Positions 203 to 6,715 of a stretch of DNA of 7,166 nt are shown one piece after another (position 1 is the first letter of the stretch; every line of letters begins with the position of its first letter). Source of the stretch: a virus (lineage: Duplodnaviria; Heunggongvirae; Uroviricota; Caudoviricetes); the IMG/VR virus record IMGVR_UViG_2737471853_000005, positions 1 through 7,166 of that record; one strand, 5' to 3'. The notes under the pieces were generated by a model. The model did no database searches. It was given only the letters and a program-made list of their open reading frames with translations, and was not told where the DNA came from. Position numbers and translations under genes: made by a program.

Positions 203-1414
203 TCAGCTACCTGAGCCAGTGCTGAAAGAGCCATACACGAACGCTTCAGGGCGTTTGACGGCCAGCGCCAGACGTTCTTCGCAACGGATGGTGATCATGT
301 TTTTCTCGAAGTCGTCGGCGTTCTCCGTGGAGATAACCACGTTCGCATCTTCGCGGTCGAAGATTTGCGCGCCAGCGTTAAATACACCGGTCAGGAATTT
401 ACCCTGGAAGGCTGCCGCTTCCGTTGCAACAACTGGCAGGCCCCACAGAGTCGGACCAGTCAGCGCCGCAGGGTTCGCCAGAATGTAACGACCCAGGCTG
501 TCTTTGGTCAGCTCGATCCGCGCCCAGTCAATGAAGTGAAGAACATGACCAGATGCCGGGAAGCGTGCCAGCTGTGCCTGCAACATTGCCAGTCGCAGAT
601 CGTCAATCCCGCTCTGCTGTTCGACAGTGAACGCCGGATTGAACGCTGACGCCTGAGGAACGATGCCGTGCAGATGAACGCCGGTACCGTCACCGAAGAG
701 AATTTCCTGCTCTTCTGCATACTTCAGCCCGTAGCGCATTTCGGCATCAACGGTGGACTGCAACTGTGCGAAGTCATCCAGGATCTGCTTTGAGGCTTTG
801 AACAGGTGGGCAATGGTGCTGACGCCAGTGATTTTCGGCGTGAACTCAATTTCGCTGTATGGTTTCTGCGTATTTTCAGGAACCACTTTCGCGTTATTGG
901 TAAAGCCTGTCTGCTGCACCCAGAAAATAGCTGAGGATGACGTACGGCCTGGAGCAATCAGATCGCGGATGAACAGGCGCTGTTTCGGCGCCGTATCAAT
1001 ACCCGGCAGGCGCTGTGGCTCCACAACACCATCAGGCACATCCACCGAAGTCAGGGCAGCCTTAACCGGGATGCTGATGCGCTTACCGCCTTCCACGCTG
1101 GAAGCAAAGGTTTTCAGGGCTTCAGCGGAGATCACCTGGTGGCCAACGGACTCGACAACCTGTTTCGCGTTTGCCAGCGGCATCTGGGCAACATGTTGCT
1201 CCAGTTCGCCCATTGCGGCCTTCAGGGTTTTTTCAGCTTCACGCAGCGCATTGAACTCAGAAGCCATTTTATCAACGGCAGCTTTTGTTTCTTCTGACAG
1301 CCTGCCTGACTTCTGCGCCTCTTTGAGTGCGTCTTCTGCTTTCGCGTTGAATTTGCCGGTTGCCTCTTCAATGCTGGCAGTGACTTTTTTCAGAATTTCG
1401 TTTACTTCAGACAT
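203..1414 (-). CDS. Major capsid protein, HK97 family (with N-terminal delta/scaffolding domain)
   Basis: 403-aa ORF; ATG at 1414-1412 with AAGGA SD overlapping the upstream stop; C-terminus ...KNMITIRCEERLALAVKRPEAFVYGSFSTGSGS closely resembles HK97 gp5 (...KNMLTILCEERLALAHYRPTAIIKGTFSSGS, recalled from memory); N-terminal ~110 aa Ala/Glu/Lys-rich and coiled-coil-like, as in the gp5 delta domain; stop TGA at 205-203. Confidence 0.95.
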   Translation of the reverse strand: MSEVNEILKKVTASIEEATGKFNAKAEDALKEAQKSGRLSEETKAAVDKMASEFNALREAEKTLKAAMGELEQHVAQMPLANAKQVVESVGHQVISAEALKTFASSVEGGKRISIPVKAALTSVDVPDGVVEPQRLPGIDTAPKQRLFIRDLIAPGRTSSSAIFWVQQTGFTNNAKVVPENTQKPYSEIEFTPKITGVSTIAHLFKASKQILDDFAQLQSTVDAEMRYGLKYAEEQEILFGDGTGVHLHGIVPQASAFNPAFTVEQQSGIDDLRLAMLQAQLARFPASGHVLHFIDWARIELTKDSLGRYILANPAALTGPTLWGLPVVATEAAAFQGKFLTGVFNAGAQIFDREDANVVISTENADDFEKNMITIRCEERLALAVKRPEAFVYGSFSTGSGS

Positions 1415-1423
1415 AAAGGGTCC

Positions 1424-2272
1424 TTATTTGACTAACGCCGCAAGAGCGCTTTCAAGTGAATTGAGGGTTTCAGGTTTGATATCTTCGGCAGCGCCCGGCG
1501 TACCGTCGTTGGTGGTGACAGCGCCAGGCATGCCACCGGATAAGGCTTTAATGAGTTTTCTGCGCTCAGAGCGCGGGGTGTTGGTTTTAGCCAGCAGCGC
1601 ATCAAGTTTTCGAAGCGCGGCCGCGGGTGATTCATCGCCATCACTGACTGCATCAGCAGAAAGCAGGCTGTCTGCCAGTCCCTTCGCCACAGCGTCACTG
1701 CCACCGATATAACTCTCGGCGTCCATCAGTTTCTGAACGGCTGCCATATCAAGGCCGGAACGCGCCGCGTAGATGTCTGCCATAGCGGTATCGAACGGCT
1801 CAAGAGACTGTGCCAGTTCCGCAAAGTCATGGCGGTTACCCATCGCGTAGACCCAGCAGTTGTGGATCATCAGGAAGGCACCACGGCCGATCTGAATTTC
1901 ATCCCCGGCCATCGCAATGACCGAGGCGGCGCTGGCGGCAATACCGAGCACCTTCACAGTCACACGGCCTTCGTATTCACGCAGAAGGTTGTAGATGGCC
2001 AGGCCTTCGAACATGTCCCCGCCAGGGGAGTTAATATTGACCGTGACGTCGGCGCCATTCATCGCCCGAAGCGCACCGGCGATACGTTTGGCTGTTACGC
2101 CTTCACCCCAGTAGTCCTGCCCGATCACATCAAAAACAGAAATACTGTTGTCGTCGGTGGCCGCAGCTTTGATCCCGCCGTCCCAGCGGTCCAGTGCGGA
2201 CGGTAATGTTTCACAGGTAACGCGCGCGCAGGGGCGACCCGCCGGTGCTACCGGAAGTTGTTTTTTGCTCAT
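1424..2272 (-). CDS. Prohead (head maturation) serine protease, ClpP-like (peptidase S14 fold) with ~90-aa C-terminal extension
   Basis: 282-aa ORF; motifs NINSPGGDMFEGLAIYN, GIAASAAS (catalytic Ser context) and LMIHNCW (His) match ClpP hallmarks INSPGG / GQAASMG / MIHQP; sits between portal and capsid genes as in HK97-like head modules; ATG 2272-2270, stop TAA 1426-1424. Confidence 0.9.
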   Translation of the reverse strand: MSKKQLPVAPAGRPCARVTCETLPSALDRWDGGIKAAATDDNSISVFDVIGQDYWGEGVTAKRIAGALRAMNGADVTVNINSPGGDMFEGLAIYNLLREYEGRVTVKVLGIAASAASVIAMAGDEIQIGRGAFLMIHNCWVYAMGNRHDFAELAQSLEPFDTAMADIYAARSGLDMAAVQKLMDAESYIGGSDAVAKGLADSLLSADAVSDGDESPAAALRKLDALLAKTNTPRSERRKLIKALSGGMPGAVTTNDGTPGAAEDIKPETLNSLESALAALVK

Positions 2273-2284
2273 CAGGAAGTGCTC

Positions 2285-3589
2285 CTAAGCGGCCTGTTTC
2301 AGCGGAGATTGTTCAAAGGAAATATCGGGGAATACGTGGTTATGCAGTTCTCTCAGGGCCAGAGCCTGAACAGCAGGATTGCTGCTTTCGAGATTTTTCA
2401 GTTGCGTCAGGTTGAGCTGAACGGTGTAAATGTCACCCCCTTCAATCGGTGGCATATTCTCAAGACGGCGCACGTCATTGCGGGACATCCACCCATTCTG
2501 GAGCGCGCTGGTATAGTACGCAGCACGGCCCGCGCTGTCGGCGCGCAGCAGACCTTCTACAGAGAACTCCGCGAACACCTCATCATCGCTGTCCAGCAGG
2601 CACCGTCCTATTTCCTGTTCTATGTTCACCAACAGGGGTCGCAGGGTGTGCGTCAGGAACTGGAGGTTCATGCCCTCCAGACTGGATGCCCAGCTGCTTT
2701 GCTTCGTGGTGTGACCGACCATGAAAGGCGGAACGCGAAACCAGCGACAGATTTCCTCAATACTGAAAGAGCGGCTTTCCAGCATCTGGGCGTCTTCGGG
2801 ATTCATGGTGACGCCCTGGTACTTCAATCCGCCTTCAAGCACCATGATTTTCCCGGCGTTTTTTGAACCGGTAAATGCAGCCATGTAGCTGCGAAGTCTT
2901 TCACGTTGTTCGTGATCCAGCGCACCCTCAGCGGAGAGAAAACCTGAACTCTGAAGCCCCTGTTCAAAAATCTTCGCGGCAGACTCCTCAACCGCCATTG
3001 CAGAACCGATCACATCCCGCCCTGTTTTCATCGGCATCATGCCGCAAACACCGTCAAGACCGAACCCGCGAATGTGCATGATGTTTTTGACGGGAATGAC
3101 GCGCTCGTTACCGTTTTCAGTGTATTTGTATTCCAGCGCCCCGGTCGTGAGACGTTTAACCACCATGTTCTGCGGCAGCAAAGGCACCAGAGAAACCAGG
3201 CGGTTTGCGATGAATTTCTTCTCAATGAAGGCGTTCCCGCGCAGGCAAATACTGGCGACCACCATCAACATAAATCGTGATGGTGTCATTTCTGAATTGG
3301 GTCGGCGGCACAGTATCGAATAGGCCGGATGATCGGTTGCCGCTTTACGCGAACCGTCAGGCTGTCGAACGTATATTTTCAGCGGAAGGGTTGAAATAGA
3401 CTCGCTTAACAGTCTTACACATGCCCACACAGCCGATAGCTGGATGGCTTTATCGGCCGTTACCACCTTTCCGCTGCTGCTGGTACCAAACCATTCCTCC
3501 CAGAATGTGCCGGTAGTCAGGCTGATAGGCACACCAAGCCAGTTGAGCAGAGCACTTTTAACCCTGCCTGGCCGTTTGTTTTTTTTCAT
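2285..3589 (-). CDS. Portal protein (HK97-family phage portal)
   Basis: 434-aa ORF immediately downstream of terminase large subunit, with start ATG sharing one base with the terminase stop (TGATG at 3591-3587); size and position typical of portal proteins; sequence pattern consistent with HK97-type portals as I recall them. Confidence 0.88.
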   Translation of the reverse strand: MKKNKRPGRVKSALLNWLGVPISLTTGTFWEEWFGTSSSGKVVTADKAIQLSAVWACVRLLSESISTLPLKIYVRQPDGSRKAATDHPAYSILCRRPNSEMTPSRFMLMVVASICLRGNAFIEKKFIANRLVSLVPLLPQNMVVKRLTTGALEYKYTENGNERVIPVKNIMHIRGFGLDGVCGMMPMKTGRDVIGSAMAVEESAAKIFEQGLQSSGFLSAEGALDHEQRERLRSYMAAFTGSKNAGKIMVLEGGLKYQGVTMNPEDAQMLESRSFSIEEICRWFRVPPFMVGHTTKQSSWASSLEGMNLQFLTHTLRPLLVNIEQEIGRCLLDSDDEVFAEFSVEGLLRADSAGRAAYYTSALQNGWMSRNDVRRLENMPPIEGGDIYTVQLNLTQLKNLESSNPAVQALALRELHNHVFPDISFEQSPLKQAA

Positions 3590-5325
3590 CAGAAACCTAC
3601 CATGATGGGATTATTGAAGAATCCGGAGAGATCCTGCTGGTCGTTGCCACCGTTAACCAGAACGCGGCTCATTGCTGTGAACAAGGCCGCAGGGCCATCA
3701 ATCTTGGCCTCTGGTGTGGACTTATTCGGGAAAATGTTCTCGTTCCGGTCCGGTTTGACGGTTACGTTAGACATCATCCAGTTCATCACCGGGTGATCGC
3801 TGTGATGGAAGCGGCCACCGTATACCAGCGCTTCGACCTCTTTCATCGCCTCAGAGAAATTGCGAACCGTCTGCGGCACTTCCACCAGCGGCAATCCTTC
3901 TTCTGCCAGCGCAAGGCTGAACTGCGTCGCACTCCACGGATCGAAGCCAATTTCTTTCAGGCTCTCACCAGCAACCCACAACTGTAGCTCTTCCTTAATC
4001 TGAGCATGGTCGATTACATCACCGTCGGTAAGGATCAGCTTGTCCATCCCGGCCCACTTACGATAGAGCTCTGCCATCTGGCGTGAACATTTCTCAAGGC
4101 GTCCTTCCGGTAGCCAGAATTTGAAATCCGCATGAACGTGGCCATCTGGCGCGCGCCAGACTTTAGCGGCCGCACAGATATCAATTTTGTTTGACAGGTC
4201 AACGCCCACCCAGGAGGGATAGGTTTTAAGTTCGTGCTGCGGGGCGATAAACTCGCATTTCTCCCATTTCATCATGTCCATCCAAGCTGACTCAGCGGTA
4301 ACCCAGATATTCATGTGCTTAGTGAAAAAGTTGATTCTGGCCGAAACCTGCTCTTTCGCCTTTTTAGCCAGGCGGCGCAGGTCATCCCAGCGCTTACAGA
4401 TACCCAGCCCCGGATTCGCCTTCTGCCAGACTTTTTCATCAAAGGGATCGTCACCTTCATCTAAGGTGTAGATGATGGCAAAAAACGTATCGTCTTTAAC
4501 CAGGCCGCGCAGGACCTTGATTGCGTAATCGCGTAGTTCGTAACAGATACCTTCTTTGTTGAAGCCGGCGGTGGTGATACCGAAAAGCAGCGATTGCAGG
4601 CGCGCGCCGGTGGCCGTCTCCAGAACGTCCCAAACGTCACGGGTTTTGTGAGCATGCAGCTCGTCGACGATGGCACAGTGGATGTTCAGGCCGTCGAGGT
4701 TGTTCGCATCTGATGATAAAGGCTCGAATTTGGAGGCCGTTTGCTCCTGGTAGATAGCGAGCTTGTTGAATTCGAAGATCCGCCCAAGAGTGGCTTTCGC
4801 CTTCTTGACCATATTCTTCGCGTCTTCAAAAACAATTCGTGCCTGGTCTCGGGTGGTTGCAGCGGAATAAACCTCCGCACCGCCCTCGCCGTCGGCGCCA
4901 GCCATATAAAGCCCCACGCCAGAGCAAAGCGTTGATTTAGCATTTTTACGAGCCACCTCAACATCTGCTGTCCGGAAGCGCCGAACCATTACTGGACGAC
5001 CGCTGCCGTCGTTACGCAAAACGGTTTCTCCCGTTTCTTCGTTAACCAGCGGGATCACGAAACCAAAAATATTAATCAGGATGAAAACGTGCCAGTCCAT
5101 CAGCTCAATAGGCTGCCCTGCCAGTGCGCCTTTTACGTGAGGTACAAAATTATAGAAATTCAGAATGTGCTGCGCGCGCGGTTCACTGAAGAAAATACCG
5201 CGCTCTTCGCCGTGTGCCAGATCGTCAAGAAAACGCTGGCAGGCAAGGCGCACATACTCACAGGCAATAATCTCCCCAGCAACCACCCTCTCGGCGTAGC
5301 GGATGCCTTCTGCAACCTTCGCCAT
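3589..5325 (-). CDS. terL: Terminase large subunit (ATPase/nuclease)
   Basis: 578-aa ORF; located between terminase small subunit and portal; start ATG overlaps terS stop (TAATG at 5327-5323) with GAGGGA SD inside the terS 3' end; length and overall sequence character typical of terminase large subunits. Confidence 0.9.
   Translation of the reverse strand: MAKVAEGIRYAERVVAGEIIACEYVRLACQRFLDDLAHGEERGIFFSEPRAQHILNFYNFVPHVKGALAGQPIELMDWHVFILINIFGFVIPLVNEETGETVLRNDGSGRPVMVRRFRTADVEVARKNAKSTLCSGVGLYMAGADGEGGAEVYSAATTRDQARIVFEDAKNMVKKAKATLGRIFEFNKLAIYQEQTASKFEPLSSDANNLDGLNIHCAIVDELHAHKTRDVWDVLETATGARLQSLLFGITTAGFNKEGICYELRDYAIKVLRGLVKDDTFFAIIYTLDEGDDPFDEKVWQKANPGLGICKRWDDLRRLAKKAKEQVSARINFFTKHMNIWVTAESAWMDMMKWEKCEFIAPQHELKTYPSWVGVDLSNKIDICAAAKVWRAPDGHVHADFKFWLPEGRLEKCSRQMAELYRKWAGMDKLILTDGDVIDHAQIKEELQLWVAGESLKEIGFDPWSATQFSLALAEEGLPLVEVPQTVRNFSEAMKEVEALVYGGRFHHSDHPVMNWMMSNVTVKPDRNENIFPNKSTPEAKIDGPAALFTAMSRVLVNGGNDQQDLSGFFNNPIMVGF
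3883..3890 (-). other. Chi octamer (5'-GCTGGTGG-3' on minus strand)
   Basis: Exact ccaccagc on plus strand at 3883-3890. Functional only if the host uses the E. coli-type RecBCD Chi sequence. Confidence 0.5.
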
Positions 5326-5798
5326 TAATCCCTCGCTTTCATAAACTCGGCCAGCGGGTCAACCGCATCAGGACCTTTTGCATTCACTTTCGTGCGGCTG
5401 GCTGGCGTCATGCCGAACTCACCAAGCATGGCGCGCAGACGTTTCCAGGCATCAGCTTTCATGATGGCGGCGGGGTGAGCCTTGATCAGCACATCCCCGC
5501 TCTGCGTTTCGGTCCGGTAGGTATAGCCCTCAACTTCAAGCGTGTCGCAGTGATGCCGGTATTCGGTATAAGCCTCAACCAGCAGTTCAAGGGCTCTGGC
5601 GTCCAGCTGAGACATCACACCGATAGCATCAAGCTCGTCGGCCATCCGTTTAAACCAGTATTTCCCCTGCTTGTCGAAATGCTTCGGCGTTGGGGGTACC
5701 CCTGAAGGGGGTTTTGGTTCGTTCTCATTGATCGGGCGTTTAGATGGGTTCCCCCTCACCAAACGTAGATGGGTCGGGGTTTTCGGTGGTCCAGACAT
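5325..5798 (-). CDS. terS: Terminase small subunit, P27 family
   Basis: 157-aa ORF; N-terminus MSGPPKTPTHLRLVRGNPSKRPINENEPKPP and C-terminal FGMTPASR match the conserved pattern of P27-family small terminases (RGNPGKRP.NENEP...FGLTPASR); AGGAG SD 9 nt upstream of ATG 5798-5796. Confidence 0.88.
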   Translation of the reverse strand: MSGPPKTPTHLRLVRGNPSKRPINENEPKPPSGVPPTPKHFDKQGKYWFKRMADELDAIGVMSQLDARALELLVEAYTEYRHHCDTLEVEGYTYRTETQSGDVLIKAHPAAIMKADAWKRLRAMLGEFGMTPASRTKVNAKGPDAVDPLAEFMKARD

Positions 5799-5955
5799 AA
5801 TCGAAAACTCCTATTAATCATCGAGTGGGGGACCCCATAAAAAAGTTTTCTAACCTGCGGCGATGTGAAAAGAGGTTGGGCGGCGGTCCTTTGGCGCGTC
5901 GTTCCTGAACTTTCAACCCGCCCTCCCCCTCGGTCGATTCAAATGAGAATTGATG
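5799..5955. other. Candidate cos / packaging-initiation region (intergenic, between HNH endonuclease and terminase small subunit)
   Basis: Only sizeable non-coding gap in the operon (157 bp), at the position where HK97-like phages carry cos. Contains GGGCGGCGGTCCT (5878-5890), resembling the lambda cosN cohesive-end 12-mer GGGCGGCGACCT, a polypurine/polypyrimidine GC-rich tract (5919-5934), and an inverted repeat at its edge. Cut site not determinable from sequence. Confidence 0.45.
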
Positions 5956-5966
5956 TCATTTGAGTC
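5936..5966. repeat. Inverted repeat / hairpin (gattcaaatga ... tcatttgagtc, 9-nt loop) overlapping the HNH stop codon
   Basis: tcaaatga (5939-5946) is the exact reverse complement of tcatttga (5956-5963); flanking bases extend the stem to ~11 bp with one wobble. Not followed by a U-tract on either strand. Confidence 0.6.
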
Positions 5967-6306
5967 TTTCGACCGCTGTCTTCGCCCTGTGGCAAGGCTT
6001 GCAGAGGCTTTCGAGGTTGGACAGGTCATCGGTCCCCCCATTTGCTTTGGCGGTGATGTGGTCCACCGTCTCAGCGGGTGTATACCTTCCATTTCGCAGG
6101 CATTCCTGACAAAGGTGTTTATCTCTGTCGAGAACGATTGGGCGCAGCCTGTCCCACTTACTGCCATAGCCGCGCTGATGTCGGCTCTGTCCCCGCTGAT
6201 GCTGCTGCCAGCCTTCGTTAAGGTGCTTGGGACAATAGCCTGAGCGATCTGTGGTTGTGCCGGGGCAGCCACGCTTGCGGCATGCCCTTGGTATCAACGC
6301 AGGCAT
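5956..6306 (-). CDS. HNH endonuclease (terminase-associated, cos-cleavage accessory type)
   Basis: C-terminal CQECLRNGRYTPAETVDHITAKANGGTDDLSNLESLCKPCHRAKT is a classic HNH motif (CxxC...H...N...CxxCH). Located directly upstream of cos/terS, as for HK97 gp74-like HNH proteins. I place the start at ATG 6306-6304 (GGAGG SD 8 nt upstream) rather than the GTG at 6321 used by the ORF track. Confidence 0.9.
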   Translation of the reverse strand: MPALIPRACRKRGCPGTTTDRSGYCPKHLNEGWQQHQRGQSRHQRGYGSKWDRLRPIVLDRDKHLCQECLRNGRYTPAETVDHITAKANGGTDDLSNLESLCKPCHRAKTAVERLK

Positions 6307-6310
6307 CAGG

Positions 6311-6715
6311 CTAACCTCCACGCCCTGCGGCGTTCTGTGCGTGGCGCTGAGTCAGGGTGACGTTCAACCGGTTCAACATCTGCATGGTCCACCAGCGAGT
6401 AGCACGGATAGACCACTGCGCCGCTATAGGCATCACCCACTGCATAATCAGCGCGGTTAAACTGGCGTTCTTCGAAGCAACAATGCCAAGCGATGTTTCA
6501 TGGCGACGCAACTGCACTCCGTCAGGTACTACGGCGGCAGGTTGAGAACCGTCGTCGATAACCACCACCAGCGACCCGGCTGGCAGATGCCTCAGATGCT
6601 GTTCGAGTGAACGTTTTAAAACGTCTGCGCGCTGGTGTGTCGTTATTGCAATCCCGATCCGCGATGAAATTGCGCAGACTGGTGCATACGGGACACCATC
6701 AATAATGACCTGCAT
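6311..6715 (-). CDS. Hypothetical 134-aa protein; N-terminal ~95 aa resembles the start of a family-2 (GT-A) glycosyltransferase, followed by a Trp-rich non-conserved tail; possibly a truncated or remnant gene
   Basis: ATG 6715-6713 with GGAG SD 5 nt upstream; IAITTHQRADVLKRSLEQHL...VVVIDDGSQ...LGIVASKNASL parallels GT2 hallmarks (IIPTYNR..LL.R.L.S...Q......IVVDDGS.D......G.S.ARN.G) but lacks the downstream DxD region and is far shorter than a full GT2 enzyme; stop TAG 6313-6311 lies between the SD and ATG of the HNH gene. Assignment is by eye only. Confidence 0.45.
   Translation of the reverse strand: MQVIIDGVPYAPVCAISSRIGIAITTHQRADVLKRSLEQHLRHLPAGSLVVVIDDGSQPAAVVPDGVQLRRHETSLGIVASKNASLTALIMQWVMPIAAQWSIRATRWWTMQMLNRLNVTLTQRHAQNAAGRGG
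6389..6396 (-). other. Chi octamer (5'-GCTGGTGG-3' on minus strand)
   Basis: Exact ccaccagc on plus strand at 6389-6396; same orientation as the Chi at 3883-3890. Confidence 0.5.

Follow-up and report, generated by a model that had tools for sequence, protein, structure and literature searches.

A predicted HK97-type cos site between the HNH endonuclease and small terminase genes of a Caudoviricetes sequence

The gap between the HNH endonuclease gene and the small terminase gene terS in the window (the whole 7,166-nt stretch of viral DNA analysed here) is very probably a cos site. It would belong to a temperate, HK97-like phage with an HK97-type TerL, a TerS of the P27 family and an HNH endonuclease, and cleavage at this place is predicted from the behaviour of its relatives. 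The site is an ordinary member of the well-studied HK97-type cos. Read in the direction of terS, the gap runs ...TGA CATCAATTCTCATTTGAATCGACC GAGGGGGAGGGCGGGTTGAAA GTTCAGGAACGACGCGCCAAA GGAC CGCCGCCCAA CCTCTTTTCACATCGCCGCAGGTTAGAAAACTTTTTTATGGGGTCCCCCACTCGATGATTAATAGGAGTTTTCGATT ATG, and its core on the minus strand is AGGAC/CGCCGCCCAA/CCTCTTTTCAC, where slashes mark the predicted nicks. The features of the site and its surroundings are as follows.

203-1414, minus strand: major capsid protein gene
1424-2272, minus strand: ClpP-like prohead protease gene
2285-3589, minus strand: portal gene
3589-5325, minus strand: terL, HK97-type large terminase, ATPase plus RNase H-like nuclease (Pfam TerL_ATPase and TerL_nuclease)
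5325-5798, minus strand: terS, small terminase of the P27 / Terminase_4 family (Pfam PF05119, E=1.3e-24; phrog_83)
5799-5955, between minus-strand genes: HNH-terS gap, 157 bp
5799-5875, minus strand: left-end or TerS side of the predicted cos (cosB-like), CCTCTTTTCACATCGCCGCAGGTTAGAAAACTTTTTTATGGGGTCCCCC..., with a predicted minus-strand nick at 5876/5875
5876-5885: predicted 10-nt 3' cohesive end, CGCCGCCCAA on the minus (terS-sense) strand and TTGGGCGGCG on the plus strand, by homology to HK97 ends
5886-5890, minus strand: AGGAC (GTCCT on the plus strand), conserved flank directly 5' of the cohesive end, with a predicted plus-strand nick at 5885/5886
5891-5910, minus strand: spacer from the G-box to the nick region, variable in sequence and fixed in length (low conservation, many variants, constant spacing)
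5911-5931, minus strand: G-box GAGGGGGAGGGCGGGTTGAAA in the terS direction, a C-rich tract on the plus strand, conserved in relatives
5936-5966, no strand assigned: inverted repeat GATTCAAATGA / TCATTTGAGTC across the HNH stop codon (11-nt arms, 91% complementary)
5956-6306, minus strand: HNH endonuclease gene, packaging-associated gp74-like terminase partner (Pfam HNH, E=1.6e-15)

All genes of the window lie on the minus strand, in the order HNH, gap, terS, terL, portal, ClpP-like protease and capsid (ORFs and Pfam). The sequence-only reading, made before any database search, had singled out 5799-5955 as the only long gap in this HNH-terS-terL-portal-protease-capsid operon, and the ORFs and Pfam matches agree, because elsewhere neighbouring genes overlap or are separated by no more than 12 bp. 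The packaging and head genes are all intact ORFs with full-length family matches. For the HNH gene, an ATG start at 6306 agrees with the CDS annotated in relatives including CharmingMan, while the ORF itself reaches a GTG at 6321. The HNH protein matches the phrog_144 HNH family (E=4e-40) and aligns with HK97 gp74 at 49% identity over 41 aa (BLASTP, E=5e-10), and TerL matches the HK97 TerL structure 6Z6D (E=2.4e-35, residues 121-563). The terS product gave no BLASTP alignment with HK97 gp1, and a PDB sequence search with TerS returned 0 matches. Just upstream of the HNH gene and overlapping its start region, a minus-strand ORF of 134 aa (6311-6715) matches the phage glycosyltransferase family phrog_1579 (E=4e-26) over no more than about the first 87 of its 482 profile positions, and resembles a truncated glycosyltransferase moron. 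One IMG/VR metagenome contig (3300045988_142981) is 99.6% identical to the window over 6.3 kb. Among 5,426 complete E. coli genomes, 16 contain anything similar and none of these is a close relative.

The placement of cos between HNH and terS, as first proposed from the position of the gap and a lambda-like 13-mer, is supported by the genome ends of HK97-family phages and by homology, not by the lambda resemblance. The records of HK97, HK022 and HK75 all have CGCCGCCAAA as their last 10 nt, annotated as 'cos site' in HK75, GenBank record ends being only as reliable as the methods of the depositors. The HK97 record ends in ...GGGCAGGGGGGGGGATCAAATCTTCAAAACCTTTGCCCCAAATGAC CGCCGCCAAA and starts with GTTTGAATTT; joined, these ends read ...GGGGGGGGATCAAATC...AAATGAC CGCCGCCAAA/GTTTGAATTT, the HNH gene ending 319 bp before the join and terS lying 49 bp beyond it (starting at base 50). 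The window 10-mer CGCCGCCCAA is identical to that of HK97 at 9/10 positions, is likewise preceded by GAC and has a G-rich box at an equal distance. Given this shared box, spacer length, GAC and 10-mer, the HK97 right-end sequence therefore lies at the same place in the window. Two further records deposited as complete genomes, those of HK633 (JQ086377; loci L144/L145) and Aeromonas AsXd-1 (MH178096; L271/L272), are without exactly the 10 nt CGCCGCCAAA: they end in ...AAATGAC and begin with (ACT)GTTTGA..., the HK633 start having ACT in the place of the 10-mer. Such a loss is as expected from the polishing off of 3' overhangs. HK97 DNA has 10-nt 3' overhangs, and its HNH protein gp74 stimulates cos cleavage (PMC9410871; PMC11331095). 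In SfI, run-off sequencing of virion DNA gave a 10-nt gap, TGCCCGCCCC, at the homologous position (PMC3636060), and in SfV the same 10-mer is preceded by GGAC and the same G-box.

Ends that bear on the predicted nicks are also found within the TerS lineage of the window itself. Proteus phage Pm34, deposited in the opposite orientation, has ends that join as ...CACCTAGGAC/CGCCCCCTTACCTCTTTTCACATC..., the record boundary falling at ...AGGAC/CGCCCCCTTACCTCTTTTCAC (...AGGAC/CGCC...); we found no paper on how the Pm34 ends were determined. From the HK97 and Pm34 ends it follows that each record is one full strand with the 10-mer at its 3' end, which is what 3' overhangs would give. One viral contig from a metagenome (L129) stops precisely at CCTCTTTTCAC. 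In the record of phage Fraca (LR597645; L002:1777-1900), bases 1-124 come from within the terL coding region and form a chimera with the left genome end; the junction ...CTGATCCT/CTTTTCAC (CCT/CTTTTCAC) lies at the predicted left duplex end. The contig end and the chimeric junction could each be a coincidence. At its right end, the Fraca record continues through cos into a terminal duplication.

The same type of cos could still differ in its details, with nicks displaced by 1-2 nt, an overhang of 9-11 nt, or an uncut relic site in a defective prophage. The GGAC of Pseudomonas phage D3, whose overhang is reported to be 9 nt, is 3 nt closer to the G-box, and record ends depend on depositor conventions, which speaks for such differences. 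Both nicks are nevertheless backed by independent ends in the same TerS lineage (Pm34, L129 and Fraca), and the intact, full-length packaging and head genes of the window argue against a relic, so that we regard differences of this kind as unlikely and retain the layout given above.

The closest sequenced virion genome, CharmingMan (PP925830; 92% identity), departs from this layout: the block GCGCCAAAGGAC+CGCCGCCTAA is replaced by its reverse complement, with the right breakpoint at TAA/ (L001:1760-1800). An HK97-type phage of the same submission series, LMessi (PP925823; L267:340-375), carries CGCCGCCAAA+GTTTGATTTTAACGCG in inverted form, the breakpoint on the left being GAC/. The inverted blocks are 22-26 nt long, and in each of the two records one breakpoint falls exactly on a predicted nick. 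That the CharmingMan inversion means a core able to work either way was considered and set aside as the less likely reading in view of the LMessi analogue, the breakpoints at nick sites and the count of inverted cores among the other instances (0/138). The inversions are probably assembly artefacts at 3'-overhang ends; if they were real, the nicking core would be functional in either orientation. On both readings the breakpoints coincide with predicted nicks and so add to the support for them. Several GenBank phage records are accordingly flagged here for end-related assembly artefacts in their cos regions.

A wider survey used as its query the terS-side 27-mer at 5845-5871, which found at least 120 IMG/VR loci and 12 genome loci, the latter in Proteus, Morganella, Enterobacter, Citrobacter and Pseudescherichia. 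Outside this query pattern, AGGACCGCC(G/C)CC is nearly invariant and stands in one orientation in 138 of the 139 instances listed, the exception being CharmingMan. It is followed, in these 139 instances, by a variable triplet (TAA, CAA, TTA or TTG) and then by CCT(C/T). The cohesive-end variants of the TerS lineage are CGCCGCCTAA, CGCCGCCCAA, CGCCCCCTTA and CGCCGCCTTG, and the window variant CGCCGCCCAA recurs in about six other loci among the matches listed. Across loci L010-L141 the cohesive end is asymmetric, CGCCGCC by the plus-strand nick being nearly fixed and the last three bases (5876-5878) variable. The AGGAC flank is kept in nearly all instances listed, with isolated single-base variants (AGGGC in L100) and with the exception of the records judged to be artefacts. 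The conservation profile as a whole shows three blocks, the G-box, AGGAC plus the 10-mer, and the DNA from the cut through the terS start; the spacer between them varies in sequence, not in length.

As part of its case for a cos site, the sequence-only reading had pointed to a 13-mer, GGGCGGCGGTCCT, said to begin like the lambda cohesive end, and had not chosen between chance and common descent for this likeness. This 13-mer occurs once, at 5878-5890 on the plus strand, and its bases 1-8 are indeed bases 1-8 of the lambda record (gggcggcgacct); if one inserted base is allowed, 11/12 positions of the lambda cohesive end match. As a cos core the 13-mer holds in part, since its first 8 bases (5878-5885) lie inside the predicted cohesive end 5876-5885, while 5886-5890 form the nick flank. 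In shuffled sequences the 8-mer GGGCGGCG is expected 0.48 times per window, with one copy or more in 77/200 shuffles, and the expectation inside the 157-bp gap is roughly 0.01. By itself the 8-mer is not unusual, and therefore the case rests on comparative evidence; on such sequence comparisons, the conservation of the motif among relatives lifts it beyond what chance would be expected to give.

A lambda-type cosN would be a direct homologue of the lambda cohesive end, at which terminase alone nicks 12 bp apart around GGGCGGCGGTCC to leave 5' overhangs. The 8 contiguous lambda bases, the 11/12 match with one insertion and the resemblance of the GTCCT after the 8-mer to the GGGTCCT of lambda cosQ all speak for it. 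Several features speak against it and make it exceedingly unlikely: TerL is of the HK97 type (6Z6D, TerL_ATPase/TerL_nuclease) and not of the gpA type, TerS belongs to Terminase_4 and not to Nu1 (Pfam), an HNH gene adjoins the site, the motif is opposite to terS here and reads toward Nu1 in lambda, the ends of relatives (Pm34, L129, HK633 and AsXd-1) bracket the 10-mer off the lambda register, and the 8-mer alone is statistically ordinary.

The HK97-type reading does leave a general likeness to lambda cos, which is likewise built of three elements, one upstream, one for nicking and one downstream that is specific to TerS, and has the 8-mer GGGCGGCG in common with the window. The lambda cosQ sequence GGGTCCT (lambda 48473-48479; L270:174-180) stands 23 nt from cosN, whereas the window G-box is 30 nt away and of different sequence. 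The likeness of the window GTCCT (5885-5890 region) to this element is probably a coincidence. Lambda differs further in its 12-nt 5' overhang GGGCGGCGACCT, which reads toward Nu1 while the window motif is on the strand opposite to terS, and in its terminase families, and by its type the window site would be HNH-dependent. Lambda-like cos sites are three-part and have a cohesive end with one conserved and one variable half (PMC4669245), as does the lineage of the window. The sticky-end resemblance is thus real and probably superficial; common ancestry with lambda cosN, as against convergence on a G/C-rich nicking core, seems to us rather unlikely.

It could also be argued that the gap is a regulatory or RNA element, for instance one controlling terS translation or a late-transcript signal, with cutting of the genome at another place or headful packaging. 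The gap does hold the terS ribosome-binding site (AGGAG, 5808-5812, within 5799-5875) and is internal to the late operon, and the 3' half of the gap is also conserved above the coding flanks: 5799-5875 is near-invariant, with the proviso that 5845-5871 is conserved by construction, being the search pattern. On the other side, no promoter-like or terminator-like sites were found in 5799-5955, and Rfam gave only sub-threshold chance matches in the gap, none of them near threshold. The conserved blocks coincide with annotated or physical ends in HK97, HK022, HK75, Pm34 and SfI, the spacing from G-box to overhang is constant, at the DNA level, between phages whose TerS families are unrelated, and TerL is of the HK97 cos type. 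We therefore consider a regulatory element very unlikely to be the explanation and return to the cos reading.

On the TerS side of that predicted cos, a conserved segment of G residues and an A/T tract lies at +14..+37 downstream of the cut. The TerS site of HK97 is at +15..+29 bp downstream of the cut (PMC11331095). From there, HK97 TerS positions or arrests TerL. A candidate TerS site in the window may accordingly be placed at about +14 to +37 (5839-5862), comprising G residues and then AAAACTTTTTT; TerS is unrelated in sequence to HK97 gp1, and the prediction therefore draws on position and composition only. No match to the IHF consensus was seen by eye in the TerS-side DNA.

Upstream of the cut, the element of most interest is the G-box. 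The sequence-only reading had flagged a second, GC-rich tract, ccgccctccccctcgg, and was right that it belongs to the site: it is the G-box read on the plus strand, at 5918-5933 and not at 5919-5934 as first given. The last base of the window GGGT is 5916, and the cohesive end begins exactly 30 nt further on, at 5885. The box is highly conserved in 116 aligned unique sequences, though it lies outside the 27-mer search pattern. A query made from the G-box, GGGNGGGGCGGGTCAAA, covers no base near the cut, and it had 118 IMG/VR matches. An HNH homologue lies immediately upstream in 110/118 of them, and the box is followed by terS genes of four kinds (SfV-like, window-like, D3-like and HK97-like) and then by TerL. 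GAC begins 27 nt after GGGT in 48/71 unique sequences, and therefore the cohesive end starts 30 nt past the box, as in the window. In the G-box-ascertained set, A and C at -2/-1 of the cut are found in 34/52 and 47/52 unique sequences, respectively. The consensus around the cut in this independently ascertained set is G-A-C / C-G-C-C-S-S-C-C-A-A / followed by a T-rich run. The G-box also stands between HNH and terS in SfV (L149/L147) and Pseudomonas D3 (L148), D3 having the layout of the window, and it is present in Pm34 and HK97.

Beyond these phages, Staphylococcus phi12 (L273:2490-2545) has GCCCCCTACCC, then 30 nt, then CGGCGGGGGC, both elements being on the opposite strand. The sequence CGGCGGGGGC is the cos sequence named for phi12-type phages and their SaPIs (PMC6233219). 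Phages phi12 and phiSLT and the cos SaPIs, which are HNH-dependent (cos cggcgggggc), resemble the window in their HNH-terS position, their 10-nt GC-rich core and a GC-rich box, GCCCCCTACCC, that ends exactly 30 nt upstream of the core. They differ in that, read in the sense of terS, the box is C-rich and the core G-rich, in their AT-rich surroundings and in having no detectable sequence identity beyond composition.

Among the closer systems, mEp235, Fraca, CharmingMan, Proteus Pm34 and many enterobacterial prophages are of the same TerS lineage; between the G-box and the start of terS the site aligns throughout, without essential difference from the window. The Shigella serotype-converting phages SfV, SfI and SfIV share the G-box (GGGGAGGGGCGGGTCAAA), a 26-nt spacer, GGAC and a 10-nt C-rich cohesive end, with HNH upstream and a P27-family TerS downstream, and differ in their cohesive end TGCCCGCCCC and in the TerS-side motif CCCGCGAAAAATGAAA. 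The cos sites of HK97, HK022 and HK75 (Hendrixvirinae) are alike in the HNH-terS position, the TerL type, the G-rich box, the spacing, (G/T)GAC and the near-identical cohesive end. HK97 differs in that gp1 is unrelated to the P27/Terminase_4 TerS of the window and in that its HNH-terS gap is 368 bp, against 157 bp in the window. With the TerS proteins unrelated, the downstream DNA is accordingly wholly different, CCTCTTTTCACATCGCCGCAGG... in the window and GTTTGAATTTAACGCTAACCCG... in HK97.

The DNA downstream of the cut is sorted by TerS family: CCCGCGAAA goes with SfV-type TerS at 55/59 loci and CGCCGCAGGTT with window-type TerS at 23/38, the figures for the D3 type and the HK97 type being 5/5 and 2/2. 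The cut site is therefore a mosaic boundary. As read from these sequences, the DNA upstream of the cut consists of putative modules shared with the HNH/TerL machinery, and the DNA downstream is a predicted cosB-like module that travels with terS.

Several inverted repeats are found around these elements. The one at 5936-5966 is lineage-specific and only possibly part of cos. In the D3-like and HK97/mEp235-like lineages, similar AATGA...TCATT pairs lie upstream of the G-box. As a general element upstream of the G-box, the AATGA...TCATT pair was rejected, being present in only 11/103 unique loci (about 0.5% in shuffles). The cos core (5871-5883) and the G-box (5918-5930) themselves form an imperfect inverted repeat, AGAGGTTGGGCGG / CCGCCCTCCCCCT, of 13 nt, 77% complementary and 34 nt apart, and the corresponding pair in SfV, GGGGCGGG and CCCGCCCC, matches better. 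That the G-box and cohesive end co-vary as arms of an inverted repeat (GGGCGG/CCGCCC) was likewise set aside: the two are G/C-rich on opposite strands, with no convincing covariation across lineages.

The following course of events is proposed for the window. On induction, the genome would be replicated into concatemers. TerS would bind conserved DNA a short way ahead of terS (about 5839-5862) and position TerL, and TerL together with HNH would nick the strands 10 bp apart, the minus strand at 5876/5875 and the plus strand at 5885/5886, leaving 3'-protruding cohesive ends with CGCCGCCCAA on the terS-sense strand. Packaging would then proceed from CCTCTTTTCAC... toward terS, terL and portal, in falling window coordinates, and would stop at the next cos, which completes the genome unit. 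Phages with unrelated TerS share the G-box, placed 30 bp upstream of the cohesive end; it would serve in nicking by TerL/HNH or in termination.

This last role was arrived at from the cosQ-like position of the box, ahead of the nicking site on the DNA that would be last to enter the capsid, and its conservation independent of TerS, from which a part in nicking (TerL/HNH) or in termination is the most economical guess. The G-box is thus most likely an upstream recognition or termination element, predicted to be cosQ-like by position. We propose more tentatively, and at somewhat less than an even chance, that it is a functional, universal element of HNH-dependent cos sites, held 30 bp (about three helical turns) off the cohesive end whatever the TerS family, and read by TerL/HNH or acting on the motor/portal as a cosQ-like termination signal. 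A bolder idea, which we think improbable, would trace the G-rich core and lambda cosN/cosQ back to a common ancestral nicking site whose nicks have since moved. String searches of the literature with the cohesive-end and G-box sequences returned nothing relevant, and no description of the G-box was found in the searchable literature.

Base-level predictions of the genome ends and of the packaging direction help to delimit the prophage and to orient its genome, and prediction of the site helps to foresee which site-bearing satellites or plasmids could be mobilised. The comparison suggests that an HNH-dependent cos is built of two shared modules, a G/C-rich box and a GC-rich 10-mer at a fixed spacing, and one TerS-specific module. 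If true, this modularity would explain how terS genes can be swapped between phages at the cut site. The G-box is an upstream element left undissected by the in vitro work on HK97, which focused on the TerS site at +15..+29. A fixed architecture of box, 30 bp and 10-mer may be common to HNH-dependent cos phages and may be worth experiment.
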